Shown: positions 1,950-64,000, numbered from the stretch's first letter. The stretch: DNA of 64,000 nucleotides from Minisyncoccota bacterium (GCA_018062765.1 JAGORR010000001.1:150506-214505), one strand, 5' to 3'. The notes: a model not told the origin generated them from the sequence alone. Translations and numbers: made by a program.

Positions 1950-2141
1950 ATGAACAAGCGCATGAAAGACATCAAGGATAAGACGAAGGAGGAACTCACC
2001 GCCCTTCTTGCTGAGAAGCGGGAGAGCCTGCGCACGCTCCGATTTAGCGCGGCAGGCGCACGCCCTAAGGACCCGTCCGAAGGAAAGACGCTTCGCGCTG
2101 ACATCGCGCGCATCCTCACCGTGCGTAACGCCGCTAAATAA
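1950..2141 (+). CDS. rpmC: 50S ribosomal protein L29
   Basis: 63 aa; KDKTKEELTALLAEKRESL matches the L29 helical signature; follows L16. Confidence 0.9.
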   Translation: MNKRMKDIKDKTKEELTALLAEKRESLRTLRFSAAGARPKDPSEGKTLRADIARILTVRNAAK

Positions 2142-2145
2142 GATT

Positions 2146-2409: not shown

Positions 2410-2413
2410 TCTT

Positions 2414-2791
2414 ATGTTGCAGCCACAAACCATTGTCACGGTCGCAGATAACTCAGGCGCTAAGGTCGCGCGCATCTTCAAGGTGCTCGGGGGCAGTAAG
2501 CGCCGCTACGCTGCTATCGGCGACGTCATCATCGCCTCTGTCCAGACTGCGGAGCCACGCAAGCCCATTAAGAAGAAGGATATTGTGAAGGCGGTTGTCG
2601 TCCGTACCGTAAAGCCTTACCGTCGTCGTGACGGCTCGTACGTATCGTTTGATGACAACGCGATCGTTATCATCGAGAAGCAGGGTAAGGAGATGGGTCC
2701 TAAGGGGAACCGCGTCTTCGGTCCAGTGCCTCGCGAGCTTACTGAGCGCGGCTGGGCGAACATCGCCGGTATCGCTCCTGAAATCGTCTAA
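2414..2791 (+). CDS. rplN: 50S ribosomal protein L14
   Basis: MLQPQTIVTVADNSGAK... is the canonical L14 start; ATG at 2414. Confidence 0.95.
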   Translation: MLQPQTIVTVADNSGAKVARIFKVLGGSKRRYAAIGDVIIASVQTAEPRKPIKKKDIVKAVVVRTVKPYRRRDGSYVSFDDNAIVIIEKQGKEMGPKGNRVFGPVPRELTERGWANIAGIAPEIV

Positions 2792-2797
2792 CGGCTT

Positions 2798-3163
2798 ATG
2801 AGAAAATATACAAAGCTCAACATTCGAAACCGGAAGAACCCGGTTAAGAAGGCCGTAAAGGTCGCGAAGATGCGCCTTAAGAAAGGCGATGTCGTCATAG
2901 TCGTATCGGGAAAGGACAAAGGGAAGTCCGGCGCCATCACTCGCGTCTTGCCTCTCGTCCGGAAGGTCCTTATCGATGGCGTCGGCGTCGTTAAGCGCCA
3001 TGTAGGGAAGCGCGGCCGCCAGTCGGGCCATATCGTCGAGGCTCCGCGCCCTATCGATGTCTCGAACGTGATGCTCAAGGATCCCAAAGGCGGGAAGCCT
3101 ACCCGCGTAGGACGTTCGGGTGGCGCACGCGTTGCGAAGAAGAGCGGCTCAACCCTCTCGTAA
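2798..3163 (+). CDS. rplX: 50S ribosomal protein L24
   Basis: KOW motif KKGDVVIVVSGKDKGKSG; the start may instead be the internal ATG at 2870 (MRLKKGDVV), which has an AAGG 9 nt upstream. Confidence 0.85.
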   Translation: MRKYTKLNIRNRKNPVKKAVKVAKMRLKKGDVVIVVSGKDKGKSGAITRVLPLVRKVLIDGVGVVKRHVGKRGRQSGHIVEAPRPIDVSNVMLKDPKGGKPTRVGRSGGARVAKKSGSTLS

Positions 3164-3173
3164 TCACTTATTT

Positions 3174-3710
3174 ATGATGCAAACCAAAGAACGAGTGAAG
3201 GGAGCATTCAGGGTGCTCGGCGAAGAGCTGGGGGTGAAGAATGTCATGGCCGCGCCGCGCGTGGAGAAGGTCGTCGTGTCCTCAGGCGTCGGAAAGAAGC
3301 GCGACAAAAAGGTCCTCGAGCTTATCGAGAACCGCATTACGCGCATCACCGGGCAGAAGCCGTCGGCGCGCCCCGCACGCCTTTCCATCGCGTCCTTCAA
3401 GGTACGCGAGGGTGACGTCGTCGGGTACCAAGTGACGCTCCGTGGCGCTCGCATGTATGACTTTTTGGACCGCCTCATCCACGTCGCATTGCCGCGTACT
3501 CGCGACTTCCGCGGCCTTACGGACTCCGCCATCGACGAGATGGGCAACATGACCATAGGTATTAAGGAGCACACCATCTTCCCAGAGACCTCTGACGAGG
3601 AGGTGAAGGACGTCTTCGGGCTCGCGGTGACCATTGTCACTTCGGCGAAGGATAAGAAGTCGGCTACCGCCTTCTTGAAGCACCTCGGCCTCCCAATCCG
3701 CTCGAAATAG
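3174..3710 (+). CDS. rplE: 50S ribosomal protein L5
   Basis: ATG at 3174 (MMQTKER...); FRVLGEELGVKNVMAAPRVEKVVVSSGVG is typical of L5. Confidence 0.95.
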   Translation: MMQTKERVKGAFRVLGEELGVKNVMAAPRVEKVVVSSGVGKKRDKKVLELIENRITRITGQKPSARPARLSIASFKVREGDVVGYQVTLRGARMYDFLDRLIHVALPRTRDFRGLTDSAIDEMGNMTIGIKEHTIFPETSDEEVKDVFGLAVTIVTSAKDKKSATAFLKHLGLPIRSK

Positions 3711-3740
3711 CTCCGCTTGCGGATGGTGTGCTCGGACCCA

Positions 3741-3768
3741 GATCAGCCTCCCTTAGGGGAGGCTGATC
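3741..3768 (+). promoter_or_regulatory. perfect 12-bp stem hairpin GATCAGCCTCCC-TTAG-GGGAGGCTGATC in the unusually long rplE-rpsN spacer
   Basis: inverted repeat read directly; lies in a 166-nt gap, where neighbouring ribosomal genes are separated by 2-15 nt. Confidence 0.5.
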
Positions 3769-3876
3769 ACGTTAAAATTGAGACAAAGCAGACCCGGGAC
3801 TCCCTAGGAAGCCCAAGTTTGACCGCGTACTTAGAGGGTGGTAGATTGTGCTCACGCTCCTCGGAGCTTTTTCTTT

Positions 3877-4146
3877 ATGGCCAAAGCCTCCCAACTCGCC
3901 CGCAACGAAAAGCGCATCAAGCTCGCCGCAAAATACGCGGTGAAGCGCGCGGCTCTTAAGGCTTCCGGAGACCTCGAAGGCCTCCAGAAGCTCCCGAAGA
4001 ATGCTTCCCCGGTCCGCATCAAGAACCGGTGCGCGGTCTCGGGCCGTTCTCGCGGTTACATCCGCGCGTTTGGTCTCTCTCGCATCCAGTTTCGCGAGCT
4101 CGCTCGCGAGGGCAAGATTCCGGGTGTAAAGAAGGCATCTTGGTAG
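3877..4146 (+). CDS. rpsN: 30S ribosomal protein S14 (long, non-zinc form)
   Basis: ATG at 3877 ([16 protein letters not shown]...); 89 aa; ends ...[13 protein letters not shown]; single Cys, so not the Z-type. Confidence 0.9.
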
Positions 4147-4159
4147 ATTTCAGTACGTT

Positions 4160-4552
4160 ATGATCACAGACCGCGTCGGCGATTTCATCATCCGTCTTAA
4201 GAACGCCTCTGCCTCGGGCAAGGCGATGGTTAACGTGCCGCACTCGGCGCACCTTGAGTCTATTGCGAAGAAGCTCATGGAGCTTGGGTATGTCGCTTCG
4301 GTCGAAACTACGCGCAAGGAGGTAGGGAAGACTCTCGATGTCGCGCTTCGCTACGACGACGGCACTCCTCGTATTCGCGGCGTAAAGCGCATCTCGAAGC
4401 CAGGTCGCCGACTCTACACGCCAGCGCGTGAGGCGCACACCGTGAAGAACGGAATCGGAGCACGCCTCATCTCGACTCCGAAGGGCGTCCTTTCCGATAA
4501 GGAGGCACGCAAGGTGCGCGTAGGAGGCGAGGACCTGTTTGAGATTTGGTAA
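4160..4552 (+). CDS. rpsH: 30S ribosomal protein S8
   Basis: MITDRVGDFIIRLKNA... is the canonical S8 start; 130 aa. Confidence 0.95.
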   Translation: MITDRVGDFIIRLKNASASGKAMVNVPHSAHLESIAKKLMELGYVASVETTRKEVGKTLDVALRYDDGTPRIRGVKRISKPGRRLYTPAREAHTVKNGIGARLISTPKGVLSDKEARKVRVGGEDLFEIW

Positions 4553-4556
4553 TCGT

Positions 4557-5090
4557 ATGAGCCGCCTCGCAAAAAAGCCGATAGCCGTACCGCAGAAAGT
4601 GGAGGTCACTTCCGCAGGCGCAACGCTTACCGTAAAGGGAGGCAAGGCGACGCTTTCGCGTCCCATTCACCCTGCAGTCGGTATCGAGGTAACCGCCGAA
4701 GGTATCGTTATCACCGCGAAGAACAACTCGAAGCTCGCAAAGGCGCTTACGGGAACGTTCGCGGCGCACACTCGCTCTATGATTCATGGAGTGGAGACTC
4801 CGTGGAAGCGCGTCCTCGTCCTCGAGGGCGTTGGCTACAAGGTCGAGCTCAAGGGCAAGGAGCTGAACTTCATCGTCGGATTCTCGCACCCGGTCAAGCT
4901 CACCATCCCTGATGGCATCACAGCAACAGTTGAGAAGAACGTGATTACGATTGAGGGCGCGGATAAGGATGCGCTCGGGCAGTTTGCTGCGCACATTCGG
5001 CGCGTAAAGCCACCAGAGCCGTACCTCGGGAAGGGAATCCGATACCAGGACGAGGTCATCCGCCGCAAGCAGGGCAAGAAATCCGTCTAA
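4557..5090 (+). CDS. rplF: 50S ribosomal protein L6
   Basis: ATG at 4557 (MSRLAKKPIAVPQKVEV); two-domain L6 pattern. Confidence 0.95.
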   Translation: MSRLAKKPIAVPQKVEVTSAGATLTVKGGKATLSRPIHPAVGIEVTAEGIVITAKNNSKLAKALTGTFAAHTRSMIHGVETPWKRVLVLEGVGYKVELKGKELNFIVGFSHPVKLTIPDGITATVEKNVITIEGADKDALGQFAAHIRRVKPPEPYLGKGIRYQDEVIRRKQGKKSV

Positions 5091-5096
5091 TCTTTT

Positions 5097-5444
5097 ATGG
5101 CTACTACTCTCTCTAAGAAGGTCATGCGGAAGTCCCGCCACAAGCGCGTTCGCGCGAAGATTTCGGGTACCGAGGCACGTCCGCGCCTCGTCGTATCGAA
5201 GTCGAACCGATTCGTGTCGGCGCAGCTTATCGATGATGTTGCTGGCGTTACCCTCGCCTCAGCGCACGGTCGCGAGTTCCCGGGGGCGCCCACAAGGCAG
5301 GCAGAGGCGGTGGGTACTGAGATAGCGAAGCGCGCAAAGGAAAAGGGCGTTTCCGCAGTCGTCTTCGATCGCGGCGGCTTCGTCTATGCTGCGCAGGTGA
5401 AGGCTCTCGCGGACGCAGCGCGCGCAGGCGGACTCACTTTTTAA
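5097..5444 (+). CDS. rplR: 50S ribosomal protein L18
   Basis: 115 aa; [20 protein letters not shown] is the L18 signature. Confidence 0.95.
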
Positions 5445-5448
5445 TACT

Positions 5449-6063
5449 ATGGCCGACGAAACGCTCACCATGACTGATACCGAAACGACCGCCCCTGCGG
5501 AGGCAGCTCCTGCAGCAGTTGAGACGCCAGTCGCACCAGTGGCAGCAGCACCGGAAGCCCCAGCGCGCGGCGGACGAGGTCGCGGACGCGAGAGCCGTGG
5601 TCGCGGCAATACGCGCGCTCCACGCGAGCGTGGCGAGTTCGACCAGGTCACCATCGCCGTGCGTCGCGTGGCCCGCGTTATGGCCGGCGGTCGTCGCTTC
5701 TCCTTCAGCGTCTCTATCGTCATCGGCGATAAGAAAGGGCGCGTGGGCGTAGGGCTCGGGAAGGGTGCGGATACTGCGCTCGCAATCGATAAGGCGGTGC
5801 GCGACGCGAAGAAGCACCTCATCACCGTTATGCGCACGGACTCAAACTCCATTCCACACGATGTGATTGCTAAGTACGCGTCATCCACCGTAGAGATCAT
5901 GCCGTCAGCCGGTCGCGGACTCGTCGCAGGTTCCGCTATGCGCTCGGTCCTCGAGCTCGCAGGCGTGACGGACGTTGTTACAAAGATTCACACGCGCACC
6001 AAGAACAAGCTGACGATCGCTCGTGCGACTGTCGCAGCGCTTTCATCGCTTCGCGCACGCTAA
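5449..6063 (+). CDS. rpsE: 30S ribosomal protein S5 with an Ala/Pro/Arg-rich N-terminal extension
   Basis: S5 core VTIAVRRVARVMAGGRRFSFSVSIVIGDKKGRVGVGLGKG; followed directly by rplO with no L30 gene. Confidence 0.95.
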   Translation: MADETLTMTDTETTAPAEAAPAAVETPVAPVAAAPEAPARGGRGRGRESRGRGNTRAPRERGEFDQVTIAVRRVARVMAGGRRFSFSVSIVIGDKKGRVGVGLGKGADTALAIDKAVRDAKKHLITVMRTDSNSIPHDVIAKYASSTVEIMPSAGRGLVAGSAMRSVLELAGVTDVVTKIHTRTKNKLTIARATVAALSSLRAR

Positions 6064-7840: not shown

Positions 7841-8407
7841 ATGGATTTCGATACCATTTTGTTTATAGGTAAGCCTGGAAGCGGGAAGGGAACCCAGGCC
7901 AAGCTTCTTGCTGAGAAGACCGGATTCCCGATTATTGCCTCAGGCGACTTGTTCCGCGCAATTGTTAAGGAGGAGACACATATCGGTCGCAAGATGAAGG
8001 AGGAGCACGAACAGGGACTCCTCGCTCCTGACTGGTTTGCTATGTACCTATTCCAGAAGTCTGTTCTCGGACTCGATCCCTCTAGCGGCATTATCTTCGA
8101 TGGGTTCGGGCGCAAAGTGCCTGAGGCGAAGGTCGTCGTCGACGTGCTCAATTGGCTTGAGAGGAAATTCACCGCGCTCTACGTGGACGTGCCTGACTCA
8201 GACATCATCGAGCGCCTCGAGCTTCGAAAAGAGAGCTCGGGACGCGCGGACGATCACAGCGTGGAGAAGCGTCTCGAGGAATTCCGCACATACACGGAGC
8301 CCTCGGTCGAGGTGTTCCGCCAGGCAGGACACCTTATCGAGATAGACGGTACGCCGTCAGTCGAAGTGATACACGCTGACATAACGCAGCGCCTCGGCCT
8401 CTCATGA
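7841..8407 (+). CDS. adk: adenylate kinase
   Basis: P-loop GKPGSGKGTQA; the ORF-track start at 7820 is a GTG; the ATG at 7841 gives a canonical N-terminus. Confidence 0.9.
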   Translation: MDFDTILFIGKPGSGKGTQAKLLAEKTGFPIIASGDLFRAIVKEETHIGRKMKEEHEQGLLAPDWFAMYLFQKSVLGLDPSSGIIFDGFGRKVPEAKVVVDVLNWLERKFTALYVDVPDSDIIERLELRKESSGRADDHSVEKRLEEFRTYTEPSVEVFRQAGHLIEIDGTPSVEVIHADITQRLGLS

Positions 8408-10614: not shown

Positions 10615-11993
10615 GACTTACCTTCTGGGGAGGCGCGGGGACGGTTACGGGCTCTAACTTCCTTGTAGAGGAGGACGAGGCGAAGGTGCTCATAGACTGT
10701 GGACTTGAGCAGGGAAGGGATGTTTCTGGAGACGCGATGTACCAGCCGTTTCCGTACGAGCCTGCTTCTATCGGTGCGCTGATTGTTACGCATGCGCACC
10801 TCGACCATGTGGGGCGTATTCCAAAACTCGTACGCGACGGGTTCCGTGGCCCTATCTACATGACAGCGCCGACAAAGGAGCTCGCGTCGCTCATCCTTCA
10901 CGACAGCGCAGGTATTCTCGGGCAGGACGCGAAGGCGAAGGGCTTGCCGCTTATGTATGAGGAGAAGGACGTTGATGCGGCGTTCGAGCTCGTGGAAGTC
11001 GTCGATTACGGGAAGCCGTTTACCGCAGCGGGTCTTACGTGCGTTATGCGTGACACCGGCCACATCCTCGGGTCCGGGAGCGTGCGTATAGAAGGAAAGG
11101 ATGGCACGGCGCTTGCCCTTACCGGGGATATCGGGAACTCGCCGTCGCCGCTACTCCCGGACTGGCAACCCGTAGCGGATATTGATGCGCTTGTTATGGA
11201 GAGTGTGTACGGCGACCGGTCGCACCCACCTCATGAGGAGCGAGTCGAGAAGTTGCGCAATACTCTCAAAGACGCGATAGCGCGCGGCGGAGCAGTTCTT
11301 ATCCCGGCGTTCTCCCTGGAGCGCACGCAGCTCATGCTCTACGAGCTCTCGAATTTCTTTGCACAGGGTAGTCTCCCTGAGGTCCCGGTGTATCTCGATT
11401 CGCCTTTGGCAATAAAGGTGACGAGTGTTTATGAGAAGTACGGACCGGAGTACTTCAGGAAGGACGCGAAAGCGGAAATGCTCAAGGAGAAGAGCTTGTT
11501 CGAGTTTCCATTTTTAACCAAGACCGAGTCACGGCAGGAGTCGGATGATATCGCGAGCGTGCCGAACCCCAAGATCATCATTGCTGGTGCCGGCATGTCT
11601 CACGGCGGCCGTATCGGGCGTCATGAAGCGCGCCATCTGCCGGATTCGAATTCGACTCTTATCCTGGTGGGCTACCAGGCACCGGGAAGTCCGGGTCGTC
11701 GCATGAAAGACGGAGCTTCAACTGTCCGGCTCGACGGCAAGGATGTCGTCATGCGAGCGAAAGTGGTGAACTTAGAGGGCTGGTCTGCGCACGCGGACCG
11801 TGACGAGCTTATGCGGTTTGCTGAGGAGTCCATTTCTGGCGGGCGCACCAAGGTCGTGTTCACTGCGCTTGGAGAGCCTTCATCCGCGCGCTTCTTAGCG
11901 CAGCGCCTGCATGACTACCTTGGGGCGAAGGCAGTGGTGCCGGTACAGGGCGAGACTTGGGAAGTAACGAAAAGCTCCGTACGAAAGCTATAG
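10605..11993 (+). CDS. beta-CASP family metallo-beta-lactamase ribonuclease (RNase J / CPSF-like)
   Basis: HAHLDHVG metal-binding motif, 462 aa, beta-CASP-like downstream motifs. Confidence 0.75.
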   Translation: MALRLTFWGGAGTVTGSNFLVEEDEAKVLIDCGLEQGRDVSGDAMYQPFPYEPASIGALIVTHAHLDHVGRIPKLVRDGFRGPIYMTAPTKELASLILHDSAGILGQDAKAKGLPLMYEEKDVDAAFELVEVVDYGKPFTAAGLTCVMRDTGHILGSGSVRIEGKDGTALALTGDIGNSPSPLLPDWQPVADIDALVMESVYGDRSHPPHEERVEKLRNTLKDAIARGGAVLIPAFSLERTQLMLYELSNFFAQGSLPEVPVYLDSPLAIKVTSVYEKYGPEYFRKDAKAEMLKEKSLFEFPFLTKTESRQESDDIASVPNPKIIIAGAGMSHGGRIGRHEARHLPDSNSTLILVGYQAPGSPGRRMKDGASTVRLDGKDVVMRAKVVNLEGWSAHADRDELMRFAEESISGGRTKVVFTALGEPSSARFLAQRLHDYLGAKAVVPVQGETWEVTKSSVRKL

Positions 11994-14484: not shown

Positions 14485-14716
14485 GACAGCTTCCTTTCTT
14501 TGGACATATAAGCATGCGACAGGTACTCGGTATACGGCAGTTACTCGTGGAGGCGTGGGGAATTGACCCACGAATCACTAACCGTTTTGCTCCACGTATT
14601 CGCAAAGCGCTAAGTACTCGCGACCCCGTCTCACGGTATCGTCTACTGACGATACAACGTTCCGACTGTTCAACTCCCGACGCAAGACGCGCAGGCGTCT
14701 TGCTCCACTCCACAAA

Positions 14717-14751: not shown

Positions 14752-14758
14752 ATTCTAG

Positions 14759-15163
14759 TGGAGGTGGCGGGAGTTGAACCCGCGTCCAGCCTGGCCTCAA
14801 AACCGAATCTACGACGCATAGCAACCGTTAGGCACTAGGGTAGGGTGCGAGGAACGGTTGCGAAACCACTCCTACCGGATCCCTTATTTAGCTATCTGCT
14901 CGGGAGGACAGATACCGATCTCATAGATTATTCCGCCGCACCGCCTCTACTATGAGCACTAGAGAGGGGAGACGTCGCTATGGCGAAAGCGCGAAGCTTT
15001 TACGCGAGAGCGAACGCGAAGTCCTTTGCACCGAAGTACGGAGACTTCACGCTTGTAGCTGTTTTGGCTGCAAGTTTGTGTGCCTGCGGGATTAAGCTGG
15101 TCAGCAGACTTCCAGCGCGTCGCACGAGATTCAAGGGACAGACCGTCGAAACCGGTCACCCCC
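14759..15163 (-). ncRNA. ssrA: tmRNA (SsrA), about 405 nt
   Basis: 5' end GGGGGUGACCGGUUUCGACGG matches the tmRNA consensus GGGG.UGA...UUCGACGG; 3' end GGACGCGGGUUCAACUCCCGCCACCUCCA is a tRNA-Ala-like T-arm plus acceptor with G3-U70; internal reading frame ...GCA AAG GAC TTC GCG TTC GCT CTC GCG TAA gives the tag AKDFAFALA, parallel to E. coli ANDENYALAA; adjacent to smpB. Confidence 0.8.
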
Positions 15164-21589: not shown

Positions 21590-21860
21590 TAGCATCGGCG
21601 CGGCTTCGACATGTCGTCATGAATAATTCCTACTGCGGCTTGGACTTTGTCGTCACGCATAAATCTCTGCTGAGATTTTGCGCGACCCCGCCTCGCGCCG
21701 TCGCGCTCCGGCTTGGACATGTCGTTTGATACTTGTCGCCACGGTTTGCGGCTATATTCGTTCATTCTTCCGAATCTAGCTCGCAACCTCGGCCCCACCT
21801 CAGCGCTACGCGCTTCCGGTCTGGACAAACGAGAAGACCTGCGCCCCGCAGGCCTTCTCT
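21590..21860. repeat. four degenerate tandem copies of the tRNA 3'-end segment (GGCTTGGAC...) plus a CGCGACCCCGCCTCGCG hairpin motif
   Basis: GGCTTCGACATGTCG, GGCTTGGACTTTGTCG, GGCTTGGACATGTCG and GGTCTGGACAAACGAG resemble the tRNA CGCTTGGACTCGAACC; the 17-mer 21681-21697 recurs at 33693-33709. Confidence 0.55.
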
Positions 21861-21865
21861 GTTTG

Positions 21866-21939
21866 TCCACCCGCTTGGACTCGAACCAAGGACCGCGGAG
21901 GTATAAGCTCCGTGCTCTAACCAACTGAGCTACGGGTGG
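21866..21939 (-). tRNA. tRNA with anticodon UAU (Ile2-type, AUA-decoding), C1-G72, A73
   Basis: minus-strand cloverleaf CCACCCG-UA-GCUC-AGUUGGUUA-GAGC-A-CGGAG-CUUAUAC-CUCCG-CGGUC-CUUGG-UUCGAGU-CCAAG-CGGGUGG-A. Confidence 0.7.
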
Positions 21940-33505: not shown

Positions 33506-33692
33506 CTGGTCCCCCTAGGACAGTGGTGAAGTAAGGTACAGCCGGACTGCACTCTATATATAGGAGGGTGAGGGATTTATGAAGAGGGCTGGGGGAGGGA
33601 TTCGGCCAAGAACATTTTGACTTGCCGTCGCTCCGACTTTCGAATCCTGGATTCGGTCACAGATAATTTCCTCGTCGCCACTCGGAAATTTC

Positions 33693-33709
33693 CGCGACCC
33701 CGCCTCGCG
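33693..33709. repeat. 17-mer hairpin motif CGCGACCCCGCCTCGCG (second copy; first at 21681-21697)
   Basis: exact 17-nt match between the two tRNA-adjacent regions. Confidence 0.6.
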
Positions 33710-33836
33710 GTTTTGCCTGCTGGCAAAACATCGCTCTGGCTTTCGAATCCCTCCCGTCTCGCTTGCGCGAGACCGCCGCGTTCCGCGGCGCCTCCGCAAA
33801 TGAAAAAGACTGCCGCAGGGCAGTCACTTTCATTTG

Positions 33837-33927
33837 CGGAGGGGGAGGGATTCGAACCCTCGATACGGGTATTAAACCGTATAGCGGATTAGCAATCCAC
33901 CGCTTTCAGCCGCTCAGCCACCCCTCC
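33837..33927 (-). tRNA. tRNA-Ser (anticodon GCU), long variable arm
   Basis: GGAGGGG-UG-GCU-GAGCGGCUGAA-AGC-G-GUGGA-UUGCUAA-UCCGC-(21-nt variable arm)-GAGGG-UUCGAAU-CCCUC-CCCCUCC-G. Confidence 0.85.
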
Positions 33928-51884: not shown

Positions 51885-51955
51885 AGCGGGGTGGAGGAGT
51901 GGTACCTCACGAGGCTCATAACCTCGGGACGCCGGTTCGAGTCCGGCCCCCGCAA
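51885..51955 (+). tRNA. putative initiator-type tRNA (anticodon CAU) with unpaired A1/A72 and compact D-loop/variable loop
   Basis: AGCGGGG-UG-GAGG-AGUGGUA-CCUC-A-CGAGG-CUCAUAA-CCUCG-GGAC-GCCGG-UUCGAGU-CCGGC-CCCCGCA-A; A11:U24 pair (an initiator feature); non-canonical, so needs a tRNA-finder to confirm. Confidence 0.45.
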
Positions 51956-51998
51956 CAAGAATACAAAAGACCGCCGCTGGCGGTCTTTTGTATTCTTG
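51956..51998. terminator. 20-bp stem hairpin CAAGAATACAAAAGACCGCC-GCTG-GCGGTCTTTTGTATTCTTG
   Basis: very long perfect inverted repeat immediately 3' of the tRNA, between convergent units. Confidence 0.75.
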
Positions 51999-52185
51999 TA
52001 TGACGGGGGAGCAAGCGAAGCTTGCGTCCGGACTCGAAAGGCGCAGCTATATGCGAGTCTTCGAGCATTGCGAGCCGGGGTCGAGAGTGCGAGTCAGATT
52101 GCGAATACTTGGAGCAATATGGCCGCAACTCGTGACCGAGCCGGCCTCAAATCAAAAAGCGGCACGCATAGCGTGCCGCCCTCGT

Positions 52186-56526: not shown

Positions 56527-57225
56527 ATGCAGGCCGTCATACTCGCCGCAGGGAAGGGAACACGCATGAAAGACCTTACCGAGGAGGTCCCTAAGCCGAT
56601 GCTTGAAGTACTCGGGAAGACCCTCTTGGAGCATAAGTTCGACGAGCTTCCGGAGACGGTGCGGGAAGTCATCTTGGTAATCGGTTACCACGGCGACGTC
56701 ATCCGTAACCGATTCGGTGACTCCTATAACGGTCGCTCTATTCGTTACGTTGTCCAGGAAACACTTGATGGTACGATGGGCGCGGTCTCTAAAGCGAAGG
56801 AGCTAATTGAAAACCGTTTTCTCGTAATGATGGGCGACGATTTGTATGCGCGTGCCGATATACAGAGGTGCGTGGATTCCAAAGATTGGGCGCTTGTCGC
56901 AGAAGAGACCACGCACATGGCCTCGGGTGGCAAGGTGGTAACCGACGAACATGGCGTTATCTTGGACATTGTTGAAGGAGAACATCATGGGACGGAAGGT
57001 TTGATGAACACCAATCTCTTTGTGCTTGATGCCAGGATATTCGGCGAGCCTATGGTGCCTAAGTCCTCAGGCTCATCCGAGTTTGGTCTGCCGCAGACGG
57101 TGCTCCCAGCGGCTAAACGGCTCGGCATCCCGCTCCACGTCATCCCGGTTACCTCATGGATACAGATAACCGCGCCCGAGGATATCAAGCGGGCGGAGGA
57201 GCGACTTCGCGCGAACGCGGTCTGA
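56527..57225 (+). CDS. sugar-phosphate nucleotidyltransferase (NTP_transferase family)
   Basis: AVILAAGKGTRM G-x-G-T-R signature. Confidence 0.78.
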   Translation: MQAVILAAGKGTRMKDLTEEVPKPMLEVLGKTLLEHKFDELPETVREVILVIGYHGDVIRNRFGDSYNGRSIRYVVQETLDGTMGAVSKAKELIENRFLVMMGDDLYARADIQRCVDSKDWALVAEETTHMASGGKVVTDEHGVILDIVEGEHHGTEGLMNTNLFVLDARIFGEPMVPKSSGSSEFGLPQTVLPAAKRLGIPLHVIPVTSWIQITAPEDIKRAEERLRANAV

Positions 57226-57401
57226 TTTGTGCTGCTGGAAGCTTGGCCAAGCCTCATTCGTCGCCGTCGCTCCTCATTCCGCTCGGCCCTGGCCCGGCGG
57301 ATTTTCGTACTCGAGAATCATCGCCAGGCCGTGCAAGTCCTTACGCAAGACGCGCAGGCTTCTTGCTCCACCAGCACAAAACCGCTCTACGACCGTATTT
57401 G

Positions 57402-57475
57402 TGCTGGTGGAAGGACTTGCACCTTCGACCTTGGGTTTATGAGTCCCATGCTCTAACTACCTGAGCTACACCAGC
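57402..57475 (-). tRNA. tRNA-Met (anticodon CAU, elongator-type; could be lysidine-Ile)
   Basis: GCUGGUG-UA-GCUC-AGGUAGUUA-GAGC-A-UGGGA-CUCAUAA-ACCCA-AGGUC-GAAGG-UGCAAGU-CCUUC-CACCAGC-A; Y11:R24; its 3' end forms part of a downstream terminator hairpin CCACCAGCACAAA...TTTGTGCTGGTGG. Confidence 0.8.
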
Positions 57476-57671
57476 GTGTTGGAAAAATAGCATATTTTCG
57501 ACCTTCGGCGAACTTATTCAAAGGGTTGCGATGAGTCGAAAAAACCGATAAAGTGCGCATACGAGGAACCGCTATGCGGTTCGTGGCACTTGCGGGGAAA
57601 GCCTCCTGATAGTCGGCTTCCTCCCGCGGCGCTCGGTCGGAGATCGGTGCTAGCACCATCTCCTCCCTCGC

Positions 57672-57745
57672 TTGCGGGAGTAGCTCAACTGGTTAGAGCG
57701 CCGCCCTGTCACGGCGGAGGTTGCGGGTTCAAGTCCCGTCTCTCG
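57672..57745 (+). tRNA. tRNA-Asp (anticodon GUC)
   Basis: GCGGGAG-UA-GCUC-AACUGGUUA-GAGC-G-CCGCC-CUGUCAC-GGCGG-AGGUU-GCGGG-UUCAAGU-CCCGU-CUCUCGC-G. Confidence 0.9.
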
Positions 57746-59343
57746 CGCAGAAAGGGACTCAAGGAGCTGAAAGGCTCCTTTTGTCCTTTCCCTACGCCAT
57801 TCTTTTTGGTTCTAACCGAATCAACTTCAGCTTCGATAGCTTCGTGCTTCTCAGCAAGGGGCTTCAGCCATTCGTTGAGCGTTATGGCTATCTTCTGGTC
57901 TTTTAGCGTGTAGTTCTGACCAAGAGCCAATAGAATCTCTTTCTTTGTCTGGAGGTCGCCTGTTGAGAAGGTCTGGCGAGCGTGGCAAGCAAATTTAAAT
58001 GCGTTTTCAGTAAGCTCGATCCAGATAGCCGCACGATTCTCCGTTTTCTTAACCTCGTCCTTCAAGGTTTGAAGCTGCATCTGGAGTGTCTTCCTTTCTT
58101 TCAGGAACTCTTCGTCGCCGATTAACTCCCGATAGCGCATCTTCGTAAGGGTATCTAGCTGATTCTGAGTTGAAAGAAGAGCTCTCTGCTGGGTTTCGTG
58201 TATTTTGGTTCTTTCAAATATCTCGCTGTCATTTTGCTCGTTTATCACCTCTAACGCCCATTCTTTGAACTTGATGGGAATCTCAATAGTCTCAAGTACT
58301 TCTCCGATCTGGCTCTCAAGGTCTACAGAAGAGAGATAGGTTCTCTGTGAGCAGGTTTCAGAGCCTTTCCTGCGTCGCGTGCAGTAGTAGTAAGTAAACG
58401 TCTTAACCTCTCCCGTTCGCTTGATAACCTTTGTTTTATTAATAGCCGTAATCGAGCTTCCGCATTCTCCGCAAGAGATAATTCCCGTAAACGGAAACTC
58501 ATGCGTCTTGGGGCGGGGGCGGCCTTCACGACCGAGGAGCATCTGTACCTTGTCGAACTCTTCGGCAGTAATCATCGCCTCATGCTTACCCGGATGAATC
58601 TCACCTCGATACCGAAAGGAGCCCATATAGAACGGGTCTGTGAGAATCCGATAGATAGTACTTCTAGAGATAGGTTTCGAACCCCTCCTCTTCATCGGCC
58701 GTGTTCGTAGGCCCCAGTTGTTATTAACAACGTTTAGCAATGCTGGCGGTGTATAAGCGCCCGTAAGCATATGGTCCCAAAGCCTGCGAATCAGAGGGAA
58801 CCGATCAGGGTCTTTAATGATGTAGTTCTCTCCACGAATCTCAATTCGTGTATTCAGATACCCCAGCGGTGCCATGATTGGCGCGATACCTTTCTGAATC
58901 TTGTCCTCTAAACCGCGTCTCACACCCTTTTTCAGGTCAAGGATGAATTGGTTTGCTGACCCGCTTTCAACGCTTAAAAGAAGCGCATTGTCGTCCGGAC
59001 GGTACTCCCTGCTAACAGTCCGTATCAGGGAGATGGTGCCTTGCTGGAGCATCCATTGAATCGTCCCACTATCTACGGGATTCCTCGAAAGACGATTAAT
59101 CTCCCAGCAAAGTATTCCCGTAGCCTCACCCTTTTCCAGACGCTCCAGCATATGACCGAAAACTGGTCGATTATGAGGGCTTTTAGCAGACTTCGACTCC
59201 CTCAATATGTCTACGATTTCGAACCCAGAACTCTCGGCAAGCTGGATCAACCTTTCGGTCTGGCTCTCTATGGACTGAACTTGTCGATCCTCGCTTTCGG
59301 AAGATTTTCGGGCGTACAGGAAGAATTTCGGCTTAGGGGTCAT
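57709..59343 (-). CDS. large serine recombinase (resolvase-type catalytic domain + recombinase domain + zinc ribbon)
   Basis: FLYARKSSESEDRQVQSIESQ catalytic Ser region, INRLSRN; Cys cluster CGECGSS...YYYC...C; C-terminal 12 codons encoded by the antisense of the tRNA-Asp 3' end. Confidence 0.88.
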   Translation of the reverse strand: MTPKPKFFLYARKSSESEDRQVQSIESQTERLIQLAESSGFEIVDILRESKSAKSPHNRPVFGHMLERLEKGEATGILCWEINRLSRNPVDSGTIQWMLQQGTISLIRTVSREYRPDDNALLLSVESGSANQFILDLKKGVRRGLEDKIQKGIAPIMAPLGYLNTRIEIRGENYIIKDPDRFPLIRRLWDHMLTGAYTPPALLNVVNNNWGLRTRPMKRRGSKPISRSTIYRILTDPFYMGSFRYRGEIHPGKHEAMITAEEFDKVQMLLGREGRPRPKTHEFPFTGIISCGECGSSITAINKTKVIKRTGEVKTFTYYYCTRRRKGSETCSQRTYLSSVDLESQIGEVLETIEIPIKFKEWALEVINEQNDSEIFERTKIHETQQRALLSTQNQLDTLTKMRYRELIGDEEFLKERKTLQMQLQTLKDEVKKTENRAAIWIELTENAFKFACHARQTFSTGDLQTKKEILLALGQNYTLKDQKIAITLNEWLKPLAEKHEAIEAEVDSVRTKKNGVGKGQKEPFSSLSPFLRERRDLNPQPPP

Positions 59344-59460
59344 AAGTGATTGGTTTAATCAAAGCACGCGCCGCCCCGAGTGAGTTTTCCGACATCGTAT
59401 AGCTCCAATCCGGTACTTTGATTAATTTGATTAATAATCATGCGAAAGGCGTCATTTAAC

Positions 59461-60288
59461 CTAGAAAACCTGATCATCTCGTTCGCGCACGAGGTTCTGC
59501 AGGACGCTGTTAAAGTAGGCCGCTGGATTCTCAACCTCCTCAAAGGCAGATGAGGCACGAAAACGCTCAAGGGCCTCTTCAATAACGTCGATTCCATACT
59601 TATGGACCGACCCGATAAGGAAATCCATCTTCGTTTCCCCAAGTTCCTGCGCAATCTCCCAGCACCGCTCCTCCTCACTCGTTTCAGGTAAGAACCGTTC
59701 TACAGATAAATTTCTGCTCCTTTTAGGAGAATCGATTGCGCGTATATCGATTTTCTTTTTGGTATAGGTATCGGTATTAGGAGCTCTGAATGTCTCTGTA
59801 ATCGAATGGTTCTTTTGCAAAGCATATAAGCCACCATCAAGACTTTTTGACCTCTGACTTCCTGACTCAAGCTCTGGAATCGCCTCTGCCGTAGTGACGG
59901 TTTCAGGAGTGGACTCACCTCTGACTTGCTCGGCTTCAAAGTAGTGAGTGATTCTTCTGGGAGGACGAGGACGCCCATTGTTATCCTTCCCGATTGCGGG
60001 CCACCAGTCTAAGTAAACTTGGAACGAACCTCTGCAACCCGCACGTGGCCGGTAGTATATGTACTTCTTACATTTCAAGGATAAGAGGATCTTGTTAGCG
60101 TAGTTAGCTGTTGCTCCTTGTGGTAGGGAGTCCTCCGCAAGGCTAGTTAGATCAACTATCGCCATACTGTACGGGTTACCGAGCTGGCGTAGCCACTCGA
60201 GCATCTGCCTCTCGGGCTTGCTAATGCGCCGTTCCCGGTAGTCATCGGCGTAACTCCGGGGAATCGTTATGAAGCTATATTCCTGCAT
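59461..60288 (-). CDS. hypothetical protein of the integrated element (275 aa; possible replication/primase-like)
   Basis: ORF only; no recognisable motif. Confidence 0.45.
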   Translation of the reverse strand: MQEYSFITIPRSYADDYRERRISKPERQMLEWLRQLGNPYSMAIVDLTSLAEDSLPQGATANYANKILLSLKCKKYIYYRPRAGCRGSFQVYLDWWPAIGKDNNGRPRPPRRITHYFEAEQVRGESTPETVTTAEAIPELESGSQRSKSLDGGLYALQKNHSITETFRAPNTDTYTKKKIDIRAIDSPKRSRNLSVERFLPETSEEERCWEIAQELGETKMDFLIGSVHKYGIDVIEEALERFRASSAFEEVENPAAYFNSVLQNLVRERDDQVF

Positions 60289-60439
60289 ACATGCTCATCG
60301 TTCTCCGTGTGAACCAAAGTCAGTCTCATCAGCGTTGCTAGAGCGTTACCGACCTCCCGCGCCTTAACCCGGTCGAGCGTTACACCATATTCGGCCTCAT
60401 ATAGGCCCTGAAGCTCCTTAAGACGGGAATCCGAGATCT

Positions 60440-60763
60440 TCATGGTCTAGAGTCGTACAGGCGAGATTTGAGCGTCTTTTGAGCGTTAAACAGGCCTTGC
60501 GGCTCTACCAGGAGCCTGCCAAGCCAGAAGGCCTCAACGGCCCTAACAAGACTCTCGTCTTGCTTAAAGTAAAAAACTGCTCGGCCCGGATCGGACCGGT
60601 CTATGCCAACATAGACTGCTCCTAACGCGAGGAGACTGGCGGCCAGCGGAAAGTCCGAGGTCCCGTATTCATGTTCATTTTTCACCATGCCCGTATCTTG
60701 GGGGCGTGGATTCTTAAGATTCTTTAAGAAACGATCACCATTTCCCAGGCGCTGCGTCGTCAA
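60440..60763 (-). CDS. hypothetical small protein of the integrated element (107 aa)
   Basis: ORF only; conserved-looking C-terminal FYFKQDESLVRAVEAFWLGRLLV. Confidence 0.4.
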   Translation of the reverse strand: MTTQRLGNGDRFLKNLKNPRPQDTGMVKNEHEYGTSDFPLAASLLALGAVYVGIDRSDPGRAVFYFKQDESLVRAVEAFWLGRLLVEPQGLFNAQKTLKSRLYDSRP

Positions 60764-61715
60764 TAGGTTCTAGGTAGCTGCGGTTCAGACTCACGCCCTG
60801 TGTGGTGATTACAAAAAAATCTTTAGCGCCTGCAACATCCAGTTTCGTTTGTATGGCGAGAAATTGGTCGTAAAGAATCTTCCACTTGCCCTTCTTGGTG
60901 AAATCTACGATTTCGAAGAGTTCGTCAAAGAGCCAATCCTTCTTCGAGTCGGTCCAAAAGGCCCTTAGCGTATCGTGTTGTTTAGAGGTTTTCTTAAATT
61001 GTACGAAAACCTCACCTGTCCAAAGTCTTGAAGAACTTTCCTCGAAATACGGTATTCGCGATAAGGCAGTCTCAGAATTTTCTTCTTTCTTTGGATTGGC
61101 ATTGGTGTTGTAAATCAGCGTGTCTAGATTTTTGCTTATCCAGTTAAGTGCGCGGGCTTTAATAGTGATTTCGAATAGAAGATTCGGATAGAGACCAAAA
61201 TATATACCCTCACCCGCGCGTTCGGACTCTAATTCAAGGATTTCGTCGATACTGACTTTTCCAGATAACACGGTGTTCAAGATTGGGTAACCAGCTAGTT
61301 CGGCAAGATTCTTTGCTTTGGTCTTTTCACCTTTCCGCAGGAGATCGAGGAAAGATTCTGTGAGTGGATCGAAGTCGTTATCGTGACCATCAAAATGACT
61401 AAAGAGTAACTGCTTCTCGTAGGTAATGAATCCTTCTGCTTCCAGCTCCGGTAATGTCTTCGAGACTGCGTAATGGAATTGACCAAGAGAGTAAAGAGAG
61501 AGGGCATAGGTAACAACTTGGTGCGTTCCTACGCCATACCCCGCAAGCGGAATCAGGAGCAACCGCGCCTCATTCGAGAGTTTCACATCACGAACCATTC
61601 TCATTTGCCCAAGTATTGCACCTCGGTAGCCTAGTTCAACTTGTCCCAGAACACCACTTGCGCAAGCACCGTCAAGGAGTAGGGTACAGATAAGTTTGAA
61701 TATATGAGTATGCAA
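60735..61715 (-). CDS. hypothetical protein of the integrated element (326 aa), AT-rich
   Basis: ORF only; composition differs from the host genes. Confidence 0.45.
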   Translation of the reverse strand: MHTHIFKLICTLLLDGACASGVLGQVELGYRGAILGQMRMVRDVKLSNEARLLLIPLAGYGVGTHQVVTYALSLYSLGQFHYAVSKTLPELEAEGFITYEKQLLFSHFDGHDNDFDPLTESFLDLLRKGEKTKAKNLAELAGYPILNTVLSGKVSIDEILELESERAGEGIYFGLYPNLLFEITIKARALNWISKNLDTLIYNTNANPKKEENSETALSRIPYFEESSSRLWTGEVFVQFKKTSKQHDTLRAFWTDSKKDWLFDELFEIVDFTKKGKWKILYDQFLAIQTKLDVAGAKDFFVITTQGVSLNRSYLEPIDDAAPGKW

Positions 61716-62165
61716 AATCGCGATACTGTTGCGGAATATATTACCGGAGATTTAGACCGTGTATTAGAAGCTGAAAGGAGTCGTAGCAAGGAGTTCTCAA
61801 CAAACCTGCGAACCTACGCTTGGCAGGCTTTTCTAGCCCTAGCTGAGGTCATTGTTGCGGTGGCCATCGTATCAGATTTATACGGATCTGACGTCACTAT
61901 CATTGCATTGCTCTTGTTGATTTATGTAGTGATTAGAGTCAATTTCTCTAACTTGTTCTTTTTCTTTCAAGCGCACACTACAGCAATGGCCAAGGAGATA
62001 TTCGATATAAAGGAAAAGGTGGGTATCGATGTGAGCGGTGAATACGAAAAGATAAAAGTGGCGAATCGAATATTAAGACGCTCGACAGTAGTAAACATGA
62101 TTCATACTGTCGGCTTGTTTCTTATCTTCGTCCTTGCGCTCCTAACGCTCTTCTCAACGTATTAA
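61704..62165 (+). CDS. hypothetical membrane protein of the integrated element
   Basis: 153 aa, two to three TM segments. Confidence 0.4.
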   Translation: MSMQNRDTVAEYITGDLDRVLEAERSRSKEFSTNLRTYAWQAFLALAEVIVAVAIVSDLYGSDVTIIALLLLIYVVIRVNFSNLFFFFQAHTTAMAKEIFDIKEKVGIDVSGEYEKIKVANRILRRSTVVNMIHTVGLFLIFVLALLTLFSTY

Positions 62166-62178
62166 CGAATCTCTTCTT

Positions 62179-62409
62179 ATGAAAAAACTTCTACAGGAAA
62201 ACTGGTTCAAGATTCTGATTTTGGCGCTCGGACTTTATGCGATTACAGTTACTCCTTTCAAGTACGCTGATAGAGCGCTATGGGCGGAGGAAAGGCTTAC
62301 GGCTTTTAATAAATGCGTCGAGGACTTCTCCATTGAAGGTGCGATAGATAAATATAGTGCCTACCAGTCTATGTTCCGTGCTTGCAAGAACATGAGCGAT
62401 GAATTTTAG
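62179..62409 (+). CDS. small hypothetical membrane protein of the integrated element
   Basis: 76 aa, one TM segment. Confidence 0.35.
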   Translation: MKKLLQENWFKILILALGLYAITVTPFKYADRALWAEERLTAFNKCVEDFSIEGAIDKYSAYQSMFRACKNMSDEF

Positions 62410-62532
62410 GGCAAAATATCTTAACCACACCCCTTCATTGACACCACATGGCCATACGCGTAGGGTGAATATATACCCGCTCCGGCTGGCCGAAAGGCTC
62501 GCCGGAGTTTCGTTATACAGGCCTGTATTTAC

Positions 62533-63147
62533 TTGGTAGAATGGGTCGAAATGGAAACCATCCTCCTAATAGACGGTGAAAATTTTAAAGGGAAGATAAA
62601 GACCGTCTTCAAGAACGCAGGCAAAGAGAGACCCGTTTGGTACGAGTATGATTTCAAGGGTCTTCTAGATAAGGTTCTGGACGGGTTAGCCATCGATAGA
62701 AAAGTTTTTTACTTTGCGCGCGTTAAGGAGCATCAGGATAGCCGAGAGAAGTCAAAGCAACTTATTGAAGAACAGCGCTATCTGAAGGATCATCTAGAGA
62801 AACATGGCTTCGAGGTAATCCTTTCAGGGCGAGTCCGAGGCCAATGGGAGGAAGGACTTGGAGGTAAAAAGGCGCTGGTATTCAAGGAGAAGGGTGTTGA
62901 TGTAAAGGTTGCTGTCGATATGGTGAGTCTCTCTTGTGATAAAAGAGCGAAAGAGATAATTCTTGGCAGTTCAGACTCTGATTTACAGCCAGCAATCAAA
63001 GAAGTCAGGGATCGAGGGATCGCTTGCATGTATCTAGGTTTTGAGGCTCAGCCAAATAAGGGCTTAACATATACTACGAATAGGACAATTTTAATACGCG
63101 ACGCTGAAGTTTTGGAGTTTGAGAAATACCAAAAGCCTCTCATTTAG
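62533..63147 (+). CDS. NYN-domain (LabA-like PIN-fold) putative ribonuclease
   Basis: ILLIDGENF...GVDVKVAVDMVSL...ILGSSDSDLQPAIKEV motifs. Confidence 0.72.
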   Translation: MVEWVEMETILLIDGENFKGKIKTVFKNAGKERPVWYEYDFKGLLDKVLDGLAIDRKVFYFARVKEHQDSREKSKQLIEEQRYLKDHLEKHGFEVILSGRVRGQWEEGLGGKKALVFKEKGVDVKVAVDMVSLSCDKRAKEIILGSSDSDLQPAIKEVRDRGIACMYLGFEAQPNKGLTYTTNRTILIRDAEVLEFEKYQKPLI

Positions 63148-63210
63148 AAGCGGTCAGGTTTATAGACTGACGTATTTCAGTTCCCACTTCCTCCACTAGG
63201 GCGCGCAAGA

Positions 63211-63238
63211 CACGAAGTCCCCGAAAGGGGACTTCGTG
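63211..63238 (+). terminator. 12-bp stem hairpin with GAAA tetraloop CACGAAGTCCCC-GAAA-GGGGACTTCGTG
   Basis: read directly; downstream of the NYN gene. Confidence 0.6.
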
Positions 63239-63877
63239 CTTGTCGCGAGAGTTCGAAGAGAAGCTTCGAAAGGGACTTGAACGGCGCAGCGACGATTCGT
63301 CAGCAGACGTATCCGCGAGCCGGGGCTGCAGGCGAGTCGAGTAACGACGAGACGAGACCGAAAGCCAAGCCTGTCCTACGCAGAATGGAAAAGCCGGCGA
63401 AAGCCGGTCTTTTCTTTATTCTGTCGACGAGCTGTTTATACGTGGGGCGTATAAACAGGGACTTGAATGCCGCAGCTATATGCGAGCAGCAGCGAGCATT
63501 GCCAGGCAGGGCCGGGAAAATTAGTGAGCGACGGCGAGCTAACTATTCATGGCCTAGCCCGTCTCTCGCGCCATCGGTCTGAGCTATACTCCCTATATAT
63601 GCCCCCAACCACACCGACCCCGCCTGTAGCTCCTCCGCCCGCACCCGCGCCATCAAGCATGAAGGCGTACTTTATGTGGTTCGTGGTCATCGATACCCTC
63701 ATCGTCATCGCGATAGTCATCGGACTTTATTACTGGTTTGAGATGCGTGCAGAAATCGCGAAGCCGGACCCGGCACAGGCGTATTCCGTAGAATAGGCTT
63801 GGAAATATATCCTCGCGACTTTACGGTAGGGGACCGCATCGTGTAATACTTTTATCAAAGCCACTTAACTAACCCTC

Positions 63878-64000
63878 ATGGACCTACTTGCTATTCGTAC
63901 ATTCGCCATCGTCGGCGTCATGCTCGTCGTGACCGCCTTCTCGACGCGCCTCAATAAGGCGTTCGAAACCGCTTGGGAGATGTGGGGTCTTTTCATCGGA
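63878..64000 (+). CDS. partial 5' end of a membrane protein gene running off the window
   Basis: ATG at 63878, hydrophobic MDLLAIRTFAIVGVMLVVTAF... Confidence 0.3.
   Translation, partial: MDLLAIRTFAIVGVMLVVTAFSTRLNKAFETAWEMWGLFIG

Follow-up and report, generated by a model that had tools for sequence, protein, structure and literature searches.

We analysed a 64,000-nucleotide stretch of the genome of a Minisyncoccota bacterium (GCA_018062765.1 JAGORR010000001.1:150506-214505; hereafter the window, to which all unlabelled positions refer). The DNA at 57750-63207 is probably a plasmid-like element, brought by its own large serine recombinase (LSR) to the 3′ end of a tRNA-Asp gene, where it separates the tRNA from the hairpin and structured unit that natively follow it. 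The argument is built on direct observations: the domains and catalytic residues of the LSR, the overlap of its open reading frame (ORF) with the tRNA gene, a shift in GC content, a conserved arm at the far end of the element, collinearity of the rejoined host site with empty sites, and the targeting of tRNA and transfer-messenger RNA genes (tmRNA; t(m)RNA for both) throughout the LSR family. A preliminary description of the window had also proposed an LSR-bearing element in tRNA-Asp, with a right boundary at 63571, and had taken the host to resemble members of the Candidate Phyla Radiation (CPR). The latter agrees with what we found: an identical LSR fragment carries the name Candidatus Pacebacteria, and homologs are labelled Parcubacteria, Taylorbacteria or Patescibacteria. 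The window was also matched to GCA_017991435.1 (JAGOQO010000002.1). Loci and contigs from public genome and metagenome assemblies are given below as L-numbers.

The 544-amino-acid (aa) product of the tRNA-proximal gene is an LSR, as had been proposed; it is of intact length and has the domains Resolvase (PF00239, 6e-17, residues 8-152), Recombinase (PF07508, 9e-9) and Zn_ribbon_recom (PF13408, 8e-11). In PHROGs it matches the integrase family phrog_95 (4e-67). In an alignment with 42 homologs, Y10, R12 and the nucleophilic serine S14 of the Y-A-R-x-S motif are invariant, as are R84-L85-x-R87 and the zinc-ribbon cysteines C291, C294, C321 and C331. The nearest solved structures, A118 integrase and SPbeta SprA, are both distant (PDB E ~1e-6), and in the former (4KIS/6DNW) the C-terminal domain aligns with LSR residues 216-423; the NCBIfam matches to XisF and CcrB lie far under their cut-offs. 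A Pfam search of the element ORFs found no Phage_integrase (tyrosine integrase) domain. The LSR ORF does read across the left attachment site (attL), its last 40 nt (~12 codons) being antisense to tRNA-Asp.

Past 57750 the GC content drops from ~0.57 to 0.41-0.52, with a minimum at 60.75-62.75 kb. Over its whole length the element has a GC content of 0.468 versus 0.569 for the remainder of the window, 10 points apart, and 63208-63573 is host-like at 0.568. The inserted DNA thus has a composition of its own, including the AT-rich segment noted earlier, although this extends not to 63571 but stops at ~63200. The exact 14-mer CCCGTCTCTCGCGC, expected 0.08 times in the window, is present twice, at 57735-57748 and 63558-63571; the duplication itself had been recognized correctly, with the first copy placed 2 bp off.

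The right end at 63207 coincides with the GC shift and with a conserved motif. The stretch 63178-63211 is 91% identical over 34 nt to L051, precisely at the end of the L051 LSR ORF, and 100% identical over 19 nt to L030, beside the far end of the L030 element. There, a tRNA-Asp LSR element has TCCACTAGGGCGCGCAAGA at its far end, immediately 5′ of a hairpin and a unit. The tolerant pattern GTTCyNACnTCnTCCACTAGnnCGCGCA is found in L011, L029, L030 (twice) and L051; in L011 and L029 it lies ~9.4 kb and ~9.1 kb, respectively, away from tRNA-Asp, and in L051 it is fused to the P′ side at the LSR 3′ end; this attP-type junction is part of a tandem array located at tRNA-Asp. We read this motif as the putative P arm of attP. 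Because the P arm ends in CGCGCA, the hexamer that also ends tRNA-Asp, the element is delimited as 57750-63207 (5,458 bp, between the two CGCGCA cores), and the crossover presumably lies within this core. On the left, the P′ arm has homologs in L030, L051 and L137, which share GGGAC, a hairpin with a GAAA loop and a T-run. A terminator-like site is predicted at this hairpin, which would take the place of the tRNA-Asp terminator displaced by the insertion. The L051 locus (1700-5990) comprises tRNA-Asp, ~70 nt left over from the 3′ end of an LSR gene, three metabolic-looking genes, and the P-arm/core/P′ junction with an intact LSR, an arrangement suggesting that a second element may have integrated into the attR of an earlier, decayed one.

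Rejoining the window at 57749|63208 restores tRNA-Asp, the CCCCGAAAGGGG hairpin and a copy of a ~145-nt structured unit, which, according to a covariance model, stands 3′ of all the window's tRNA and tmRNA genes in the same orientation. This rejoined sequence is collinear with six empty sites (L113, L091, L105, L094, L167 and L117), with 64-72% identity over ~210 nt, and the CCCCGAAAGGGG hairpin is directly 3′ of tRNA-Asp in L091, L105, L113 and L094. Patescibacteria-type contigs without an adjacent LSR show tRNA-Asp followed by a terminator-like hairpin and the unit, and the order tRNA-Asp, LSR element, unit is repeated in L008, L012, L029 and L030. In L088 (GCA_964565655.1), where a neighbour gene is 83% identical and tRNA-Asp is identical, there is no LSR behind the tRNA. 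Its tRNA-Asp is followed by a hairpin and ~130 nt that match 63380-63560, and not 63572 onward, and thus by the counterpart of the hairpin and unit with no element between; the tRNA runs directly into a near-copy of 63380-63432, and the whole of 57753-63384 is missing. The anticipated empty tRNA-Asp site therefore exists elsewhere, namely in the six contigs and L088, but was not found within the same species. Two apparent candidates were rejected. L006, a 1.8-kb European Nucleotide Archive contig that looked empty in its gene table, has the sequence of an occupied attL. L002, L004 and L005 (Logan contigs, SRR11088469 and SRR11088468), independent assemblies of the organism in which branching to an empty allele was considered, all stop inside the tRNA-Met next to tRNA-Asp, probably at a repeat-induced assembly break.

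These observations fit a scheme in which insertion would be catalysed by the LSR. One LSR dimer would bind attB, consisting of the B arm (T-loop, T-stem and acceptor 3′ strand of tRNA-Asp), CGCGCA and the start of the native hairpin, and a second dimer would bind attP, consisting of the P arm GTTCCCACTTCCTCCACTAGGG, CGCGCA and the P′ arm GAAAGGGACTCAAGG.... Strand exchange would take place at a dinucleotide within the shared CGCGCA. The tRNA would be left intact, with the element bringing a new trailer and the terminator-like hairpin. We would expect the element to be still able to excise, and to replicate once excised.

Since attP and the end of the LSR ORF overlap, the position of the stop codon would depend on the integration state. 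The gene would have no stop of its own before the crossover; in the integrated form it finds one in the tRNA antisense, and in the excised form it would read on into the P arm. The integrated protein, of 544 aa, ends in ...FLRERRDLNPQPPP; from the 63207|57750 junction the excised form is predicted by translation to end in ...FLRALVEEVGTEIRQSINLTASK, at 553 aa, so that the two forms differ in their last 12 (integrated) or 21 (excised) residues. The excised C-terminus proposed previously, ...RERRARP, followed from the wrong junction and is replaced by this one. The L051 junction encodes ...LRGLVDEVGT..., which resembles the predicted excised tail. Location of attP within the integrase ORF would thus give two protein isoforms set by integration. 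The attP site is also inside a coding region in SSV1-type integrases of Sulfolobus and in mycobacteriophages BPs and Brujita, which have integration-dependent immunity. As in those systems, integration alters the 3′ end of an ORF of the element, whereas the change in the LSR is confined, by predicted translation, to the short tail.

LSR relatives are present in at least 578 species-level genomes, mostly Patescibacteria, and we counted targets in the 80 best loci, three of which are not assessable since the ORF runs off the contig, leaving 77. ARAGORN detected an antisense tRNA at the end of the LSR ORF in 64 of the 80 loci (His 25, Asp 14, Trp 7, Asn 6, Gln 5, Ser 4, Ile 2, Glu 1), and Rfam resolved six more: a tmRNA (L070), two tRNAs carrying group I introns (L008, L018) and three tRNAs truncated at contig ends. 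In total, 70 of the 77 assessable loci (~91%) have the end of the LSR ORF within a tRNA or tmRNA gene. The L070 tmRNA lies at 3765-4169(-), and the intron-interrupted tRNAs missed by ARAGORN at 11630-11991(-) in L008 and 11624-11900(-) in L018; they agree with the intron-containing tRNA-Asp and tRNA-Asn genes reported in Patescibacteria (PMC13011429). A D-(L/S)-N motif in the LSR tail, the in-frame translation of the antisense T-arm, is found in 33 of 43 aligned homologs. In 35 of 47 cases an LSR and its nearest relative have their target tRNA in common, versus 21% by chance; the subclades are therefore site-specific, and LSR subclades have moved between at least 9 t(m)RNA targets (at least 8 tRNA species plus tmRNA).

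Such preference is unusual for serine integrases. In a survey of genomic islands with the TIGER/Islander software, t(m)RNA genes were used by 14 of 297 serine-integrase islands (4.9%), versus 44.5% for tyrosine integrases, and t(m)RNA use by a serine integrase was stated there not to have been 'reported previously' and to need proof (PMC7192596). Those islands and ours are alike in being computational predictions at t(m)RNA genes; they differ in that the share there is 14 of 297 and here ~91% of the assessable loci of one clade. In our literature searches we met neither a serine-integrase clade of CPR bacteria that targets tRNA genes nor an account of DUF5659, a cargo family described below, and as far as could be found this large clade is undescribed.

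The 14-bp repeat could be taken to bound a 5.8-kb element (57749-63571), as the tRNA 3′ end duplicated on integration. The repeat is exact and improbable by chance, tRNA 3′-end repeats are typical of tRNA-integrating islands, and the unit 3′ ends, which resemble a tRNA end with hairpin, could be secondary att sites, L030 having a second P arm past its unit. Yet 63208-63573 has host GC and consists of two copies of the unit that follows every t(m)RNA gene of the window, the orthologous hairpin and unit stand in the LSR-free L088, and the conserved P arm lies at 63180-63207. When the site is rejoined by the 63571 end, its homology to the real empty sites is in the tRNA part alone, with overall identity of 50-54%. 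Moreover, serine integrases, as known from the att sites of phiC31, Bxb1 and A118, neither require nor create a long identity block. We consider such an element very unlikely: the repeat put forward as an att duplication is the 3′ end of a tRNA-linked unit that L088 has without any element, and the boundary at 63571 is to be withdrawn in favour of 63207. In the 80 loci, repeats of at least 10 bp of the tRNA 3′ end are mostly absent, in line with expectation for serine integrases; two long repeat matches (L012, L030) were rejected as att repeats, being unit 3′ ends.

A right end at CGCAGAA (63378-63384, repeat at 57746-57752) would give an element of 5,632 bp that includes the host hairpin (hp0) and unit 1, with unit 1 in attP. 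L088, in which tRNA-Asp is joined to the near-copy of 63380-63432, when compared alone fits this end equally well, and the degenerate 3′ end of unit 1 resembles a tRNA end, as a P arm should. However, hp0 and unit 1 have host GC and are collinear with the six empty sites, the P-arm motif of L011, L029, L030 and L051 is upstream of hp0, and L051 fuses this motif, not a unit, to the LSR end. Unit copy number also varies apart from LSRs, the unit at 57228-57375 being missing in L088, and L113 and L143 bear an extra tRNA-3′-like fragment behind the unit. This end appears less likely than 63207, and we regard it as improbable. As for mobility, the locus could be a once-mobile element that is now a fixed remnant or has been domesticated, with a recombinase that no longer integrates or excises. 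Four to five independent assemblies of the organism show no polymorphism at the site, related LSRs sit at tRNA-Asp in 14 of the 80 loci, each a different species-level genome, and there are decayed or tandem copies (L051, and the second P arm in L030). Nevertheless, the LSR is not truncated and retains every invariant residue, the two att arms are intact, the GC content is still 10 points off, cargo differs wholly among related elements of 5.5 to ~9.4 kb, and LSR subclades have moved among at least 9 targets; we think a fixed remnant quite unlikely.

Several results, in addition to the ambiguity of L088, weigh against a mobile plasmid-like element at 57750-63207. All contigs with the exact LSR, the upstream NTP-transferase gene or the downstream gene for a 65-aa protein are occupied, so that no empty site of the same species was found, and no read or contig with the circular junction was found; the element may have lost its mobility and become fixed. 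The P-arm argument is based on five loci, and an ungapped test of inverted symmetry between P and P′ gave 14 of 30 matches (z ~2.6, not significant). No recombination directionality factor was identified, and Pfam, PHROGs and NCBIfam revealed no recognizable replication gene in the window element. An ungapped search with the reverse-complemented P′ arm, tried as a means of finding the right end, singled out no end; the visual match TTTCAGyTCC is not significant alone.

The LSR shares with the large serine integrases of phages and integrative and conjugative elements (A118/LI Int, SPbeta SprA, phiC31, Bxb1, TP901-1; CcrB, XisF) the order of resolvase, recombinase and zinc-ribbon domains, the Y-A-R-x-S motif, an apparently short shared core (6 bp here) and an integrase gene beside the predicted attP. 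It differs in that the sequence similarity is only remote, the clade targets tRNA and tmRNA 3′ ends rather than protein-coding genes, attP is inside the LSR ORF with a stop codon predicted to change with integration state, and the clade resides on 5-10-kb non-phage elements of Patescibacteria. The actinomycete integrative and conjugative elements pSAM2 and SLP1 are small integrative replicons that, like the window element in the proposed scheme, sit at tRNA 3′ ends and keep the tRNA functional, and they have a replication protein of their own, a feature seen here in relatives (L011, L029). In contrast to the window element, they use a tyrosine integrase and a long segment of tRNA identity instead of a serine integrase and a 6-bp core, and the window element is inserted after the last tRNA base. 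Unlike in tyrosine-integrase tRNA islands, the far end here is not marked by a direct repeat of the tRNA 3′ end.

Serine integrases are prized tools of genome engineering and are thought to avoid tRNA genes. The clade offers a natural set of kindred enzymes whose att sites, all built on the conserved T-arm, differ yet remain related, and it lends itself to work on the evolution of serine-integrase specificity. It further supplies integrases for CPR bacteria, for which we know of no genetic tools, and brings to light a common class of what appear to be small integrative replicons in a phylum about whose mobile elements little is known.

The cargo of the element (Table 1) includes an NYN-fold protein, as had been recognized from the sequence (PF01936, 6e-13). 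This protein has weak matches in PADLOC (HEC-09, 3.2e-8; NYN, 7.5e-8), and the other six cargo proteins have no match in PADLOC, NCBIfam or PHROGs. The suggestion that the cargo is a defence or toxin module draws on these low-scoring NYN matches; a defence reading is possible but unsupported. Beyond the integrase family, PHROGs were matched by the NYN protein alone, in two families without known function, and IMG/VR contains two weak relatives of the LSR (36% and 22% identity) versus at least 578 genomes. Homologs of the DUF5659 protein occur in 35 of the 80 related loci and, in the 14 best matches listed, are encoded 5′ of the LSR in the same orientation; a separate DUF5659 homolog search returned the query alone. 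Together with the small gene beside it, this is the sole cargo gene common across the family, the remainder being wholly different between related elements. The small gene has tblastn matches in L037, L060 and L008, and L011 has a 67-aa gene at the matching place. AF2 single-sequence models of the DUF5659 protein (pLDDT 61) and of the 275-aa protein (pLDDT 41) were too poor and unusable, respectively, for a fold search.

At the position of the 275-aa gene, related elements carry replication genes: a Toprim primase in L011, and Prim-Pol, PriCT_1 and AAA_25 in L029. Because relatives carry primase or Prim-Pol genes, these elements appear to be small, integrative and plasmid-like, not prophages. 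The replication and variable cargo genes of related elements are at L011 6538-8727(+), L029 3591-5828(-) and 7386-9272(+), and L030 6500-7549(+). Cargo of the relatives is highly variable and partly defence-like, with a reverse transcriptase (RVT_1) in L030 and a KAP-family NTPase in L029. The LOOT RNA motif (RF03000, function unknown) was found with 69-97 bits at L008 6917-7035(-), L018 6504-6625(-) and L059 2559-2673(-), 3-7.5 kb upstream of the LSR gene. These copies are probably inside the elements, and the context of LOOT may be CPR integrative elements.

Table 1. Features of the window discussed in the text; exact runs are those complementary to the adjacent t(m)RNA 3′ end and trailer.
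Feature	Position	Strand	Basis and remarks
tRNA-Asp(GTC), integration target	57674-57748	+	ARAGORN; Rfam tRNA 70.2 bits
Large serine recombinase (LSR), 544 aa	57709-59343	-	PF00239, PF07508, PF13408; stop codon 40 nt inside antisense of tRNA-Asp
attL core CGCGCA	57744-57749	.	last tRNA bases and first trailer base; same hexamer at 63202-63207
P′ arm	57750-57790	.	holds terminator-like hairpin 57761-57780 (+), overlapping LSR C-terminal codons on opposite strand
275-aa protein	59461-60288	-	no Pfam, PHROG, NCBIfam or PADLOC match; position of replication proteins in related elements
58-aa protein	60267-60443	-	weakly conserved beside DUF5659 gene
DUF5659 protein, 82 aa (gene callers) or 107 aa (TTG start 60763)	60440-60688	-	PF18903 5.9e-8
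Protein of 326 aa (mechanical ORF) or 289 aa (gene callers, 60735-61604)	60735-61715	-	no family match
Hydrophobic protein, 151-153 aa	61704-62165	+	no family match
76-aa protein, one hydrophobic segment	62179-62409	+	no family match
NYN-domain protein, 198 aa	62551-63147	+	PF01936; promoter-like site 62514-62542
P arm of attP/attR	63180-63201	.	motif conserved in related tRNA-Asp LSR elements
attR core CGCGCA	63202-63207	.	adjoins conserved P arm
Host hairpin hp0 (..GTCCCCGAAAGGGGAC..), native terminator-like hairpin of tRNA-Asp	63208-63241	+	inverted repeat; displaced by insertion
tRNA-Asp unit copy 1, beyond element, host DNA	63245-63384	+	covariance model 108 bits; exact runs 11 + 8 nt
tRNA-Asp unit copy 2	63427-63572	+	covariance model 88 bits; 3′ end 63558-63571 = 14-bp repeat
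Unit after tmRNA	14548-14712	-	covariance model; exact runs 12 + 7 nt
Unit after tRNA-Ile, divergent copy	21631-21743	-	covariance model
Unit after tRNA-Ser	33639-33783	-	covariance model; exact runs 15 + 14 nt
Unit after tRNA-Met	52005-52151	+	covariance model; exact runs 11 + 10 + 6 nt
Unit after other tRNA-Met	57228-57375	-	covariance model; exact runs 14 + 12 nt

The strangest feature of the region is the structured unit itself, which was found first by scanning metagenome contigs for the tRNA-Asp 3′ end. It consists of GCGAGAG, hairpin H1, GGGACTTGAA..., hairpin H2, hairpin H3 and a terminal ...CCAAGTCCCGTCTCTCGCGCA, with further sequence between and after the last two hairpins. An alignment of ten copies has 51 pairs, with 92.6% of cells paired and 32 pairs changed on both sides; none of 500 shuffles was as good, and slid controls were at most 44% paired. 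The gap between t(m)RNA and unit is -15 to ~50 nt, and ~120 nt for the divergent tRNA-Ile copy. Every copy examined is 3′ of a same-strand t(m)RNA, in tandem behind another unit, or across an LSR element from tRNA-Asp; a copy at L091 1550-1686 lies ~530 nt past the unit that follows tRNA-Asp. Units are confined to a subset of Parcubacteria-type lineages, with matches at ~12 of the 80 LSR loci. In L088 the unit of one tRNA-Met (57228-57375) is precisely missing (10690-10710), the tRNA there abutting the NTP-transferase stop codon, and the other tRNA-Met unit is kept at the orthologous site (8198-8348). At tRNA 3′ ends, then, a unit is gained or lost whole, as a discrete block.

The unit 5′ arm has two halves, one on either side of H1, that match the reverse complement of the adjacent t(m)RNA 3′ end and trailer exactly, and the 3′ arm is a direct, more degenerate copy of the tRNA 3′ end. 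When folded as a single transcript, the tRNA 3′ half pairs with the unit 5′ arm (z ~-8.5 and -8.9). G-U pairs exceed A-C pairs by 58 to 19 (p ~1e-5) in an alignment that was fitted to the model, which suggests that the unit is an RNA made from the tRNA-sense strand. A structured RNA directly behind a same-strand tRNA is also seen in plant dicistronic tRNA-snoRNA genes, tmRNA and viral tRNA-like structures, and in these systems, as in the unit, the ends form an acceptor-like helix and the 3′ end copies the tRNA 3′ end. The unit differs from them in the exact reverse complementarity of its 5′ arm to the adjacent tRNA 3′ end and trailer, in its presence behind every t(m)RNA gene of the window, and in having no Rfam 15 family. 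Apart from the tRNAs, a search of 57000-64000 against Rfam 15 gave no match with E <= 1; the best in 63200-63600 had E 0.53 and 17 bits versus a threshold of 114 bits. Literature searches also returned no description of a tRNA-linked unit.

In a streamlined genome, a unit with strong covariation and no described RNA family occupies ~150 nt behind every tRNA of the window. It may be a processed non-coding RNA, a part of tRNA transcripts that acts in cis, or a miniature mobile element specific for tRNA ends. More speculatively, and in our estimation unlikely, it would represent a new class of programmable structured RNA, with a constant three-hairpin scaffold and arms rewritten at each locus to complement the t(m)RNA 3′ end and trailer; pairing of its transcript with the 3′ half of the pre-tRNA or with tRNA-gene DNA would then control tRNA 3′ maturation or read-through, or mark or shield the integrase site. 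Other identities were rejected. Some copies have an ATG frame, which window unit 1 does not, and the hairpins covary, which argues against a protein-coding unit. A tRNA, tmRNA, group I intron or known ribozyme had no ARAGORN or Rfam support, TIGR arrays have RNAs of 36 nt and again no Rfam support, and for a guide resembling a pseudouridylation pocket the number of unpaired target bases between the arms is too variable (0 to 4). The internal loop at the base of H2 (63260-63330; consensus ..GCC-GGAGCG..(H2)..CGCGAG-GC..) has conserved GA dinucleotides on both strands, and by visual impression it could be a candidate protein-binding motif of tandem sheared G-A pairs, kink-turn-like.

The t(m)RNA genes of the window are at 14758-15163, 21865-21939, 33836-33927, 51885-51956, 57401-57475 and 57674-57748. 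The 3′ CCA is encoded in none of the six, and we rejected the idea that ..GCGCCA at attR is left over from an ancestral encoded CCA. The tRNA-Ile of the window has the anticodon TAT.

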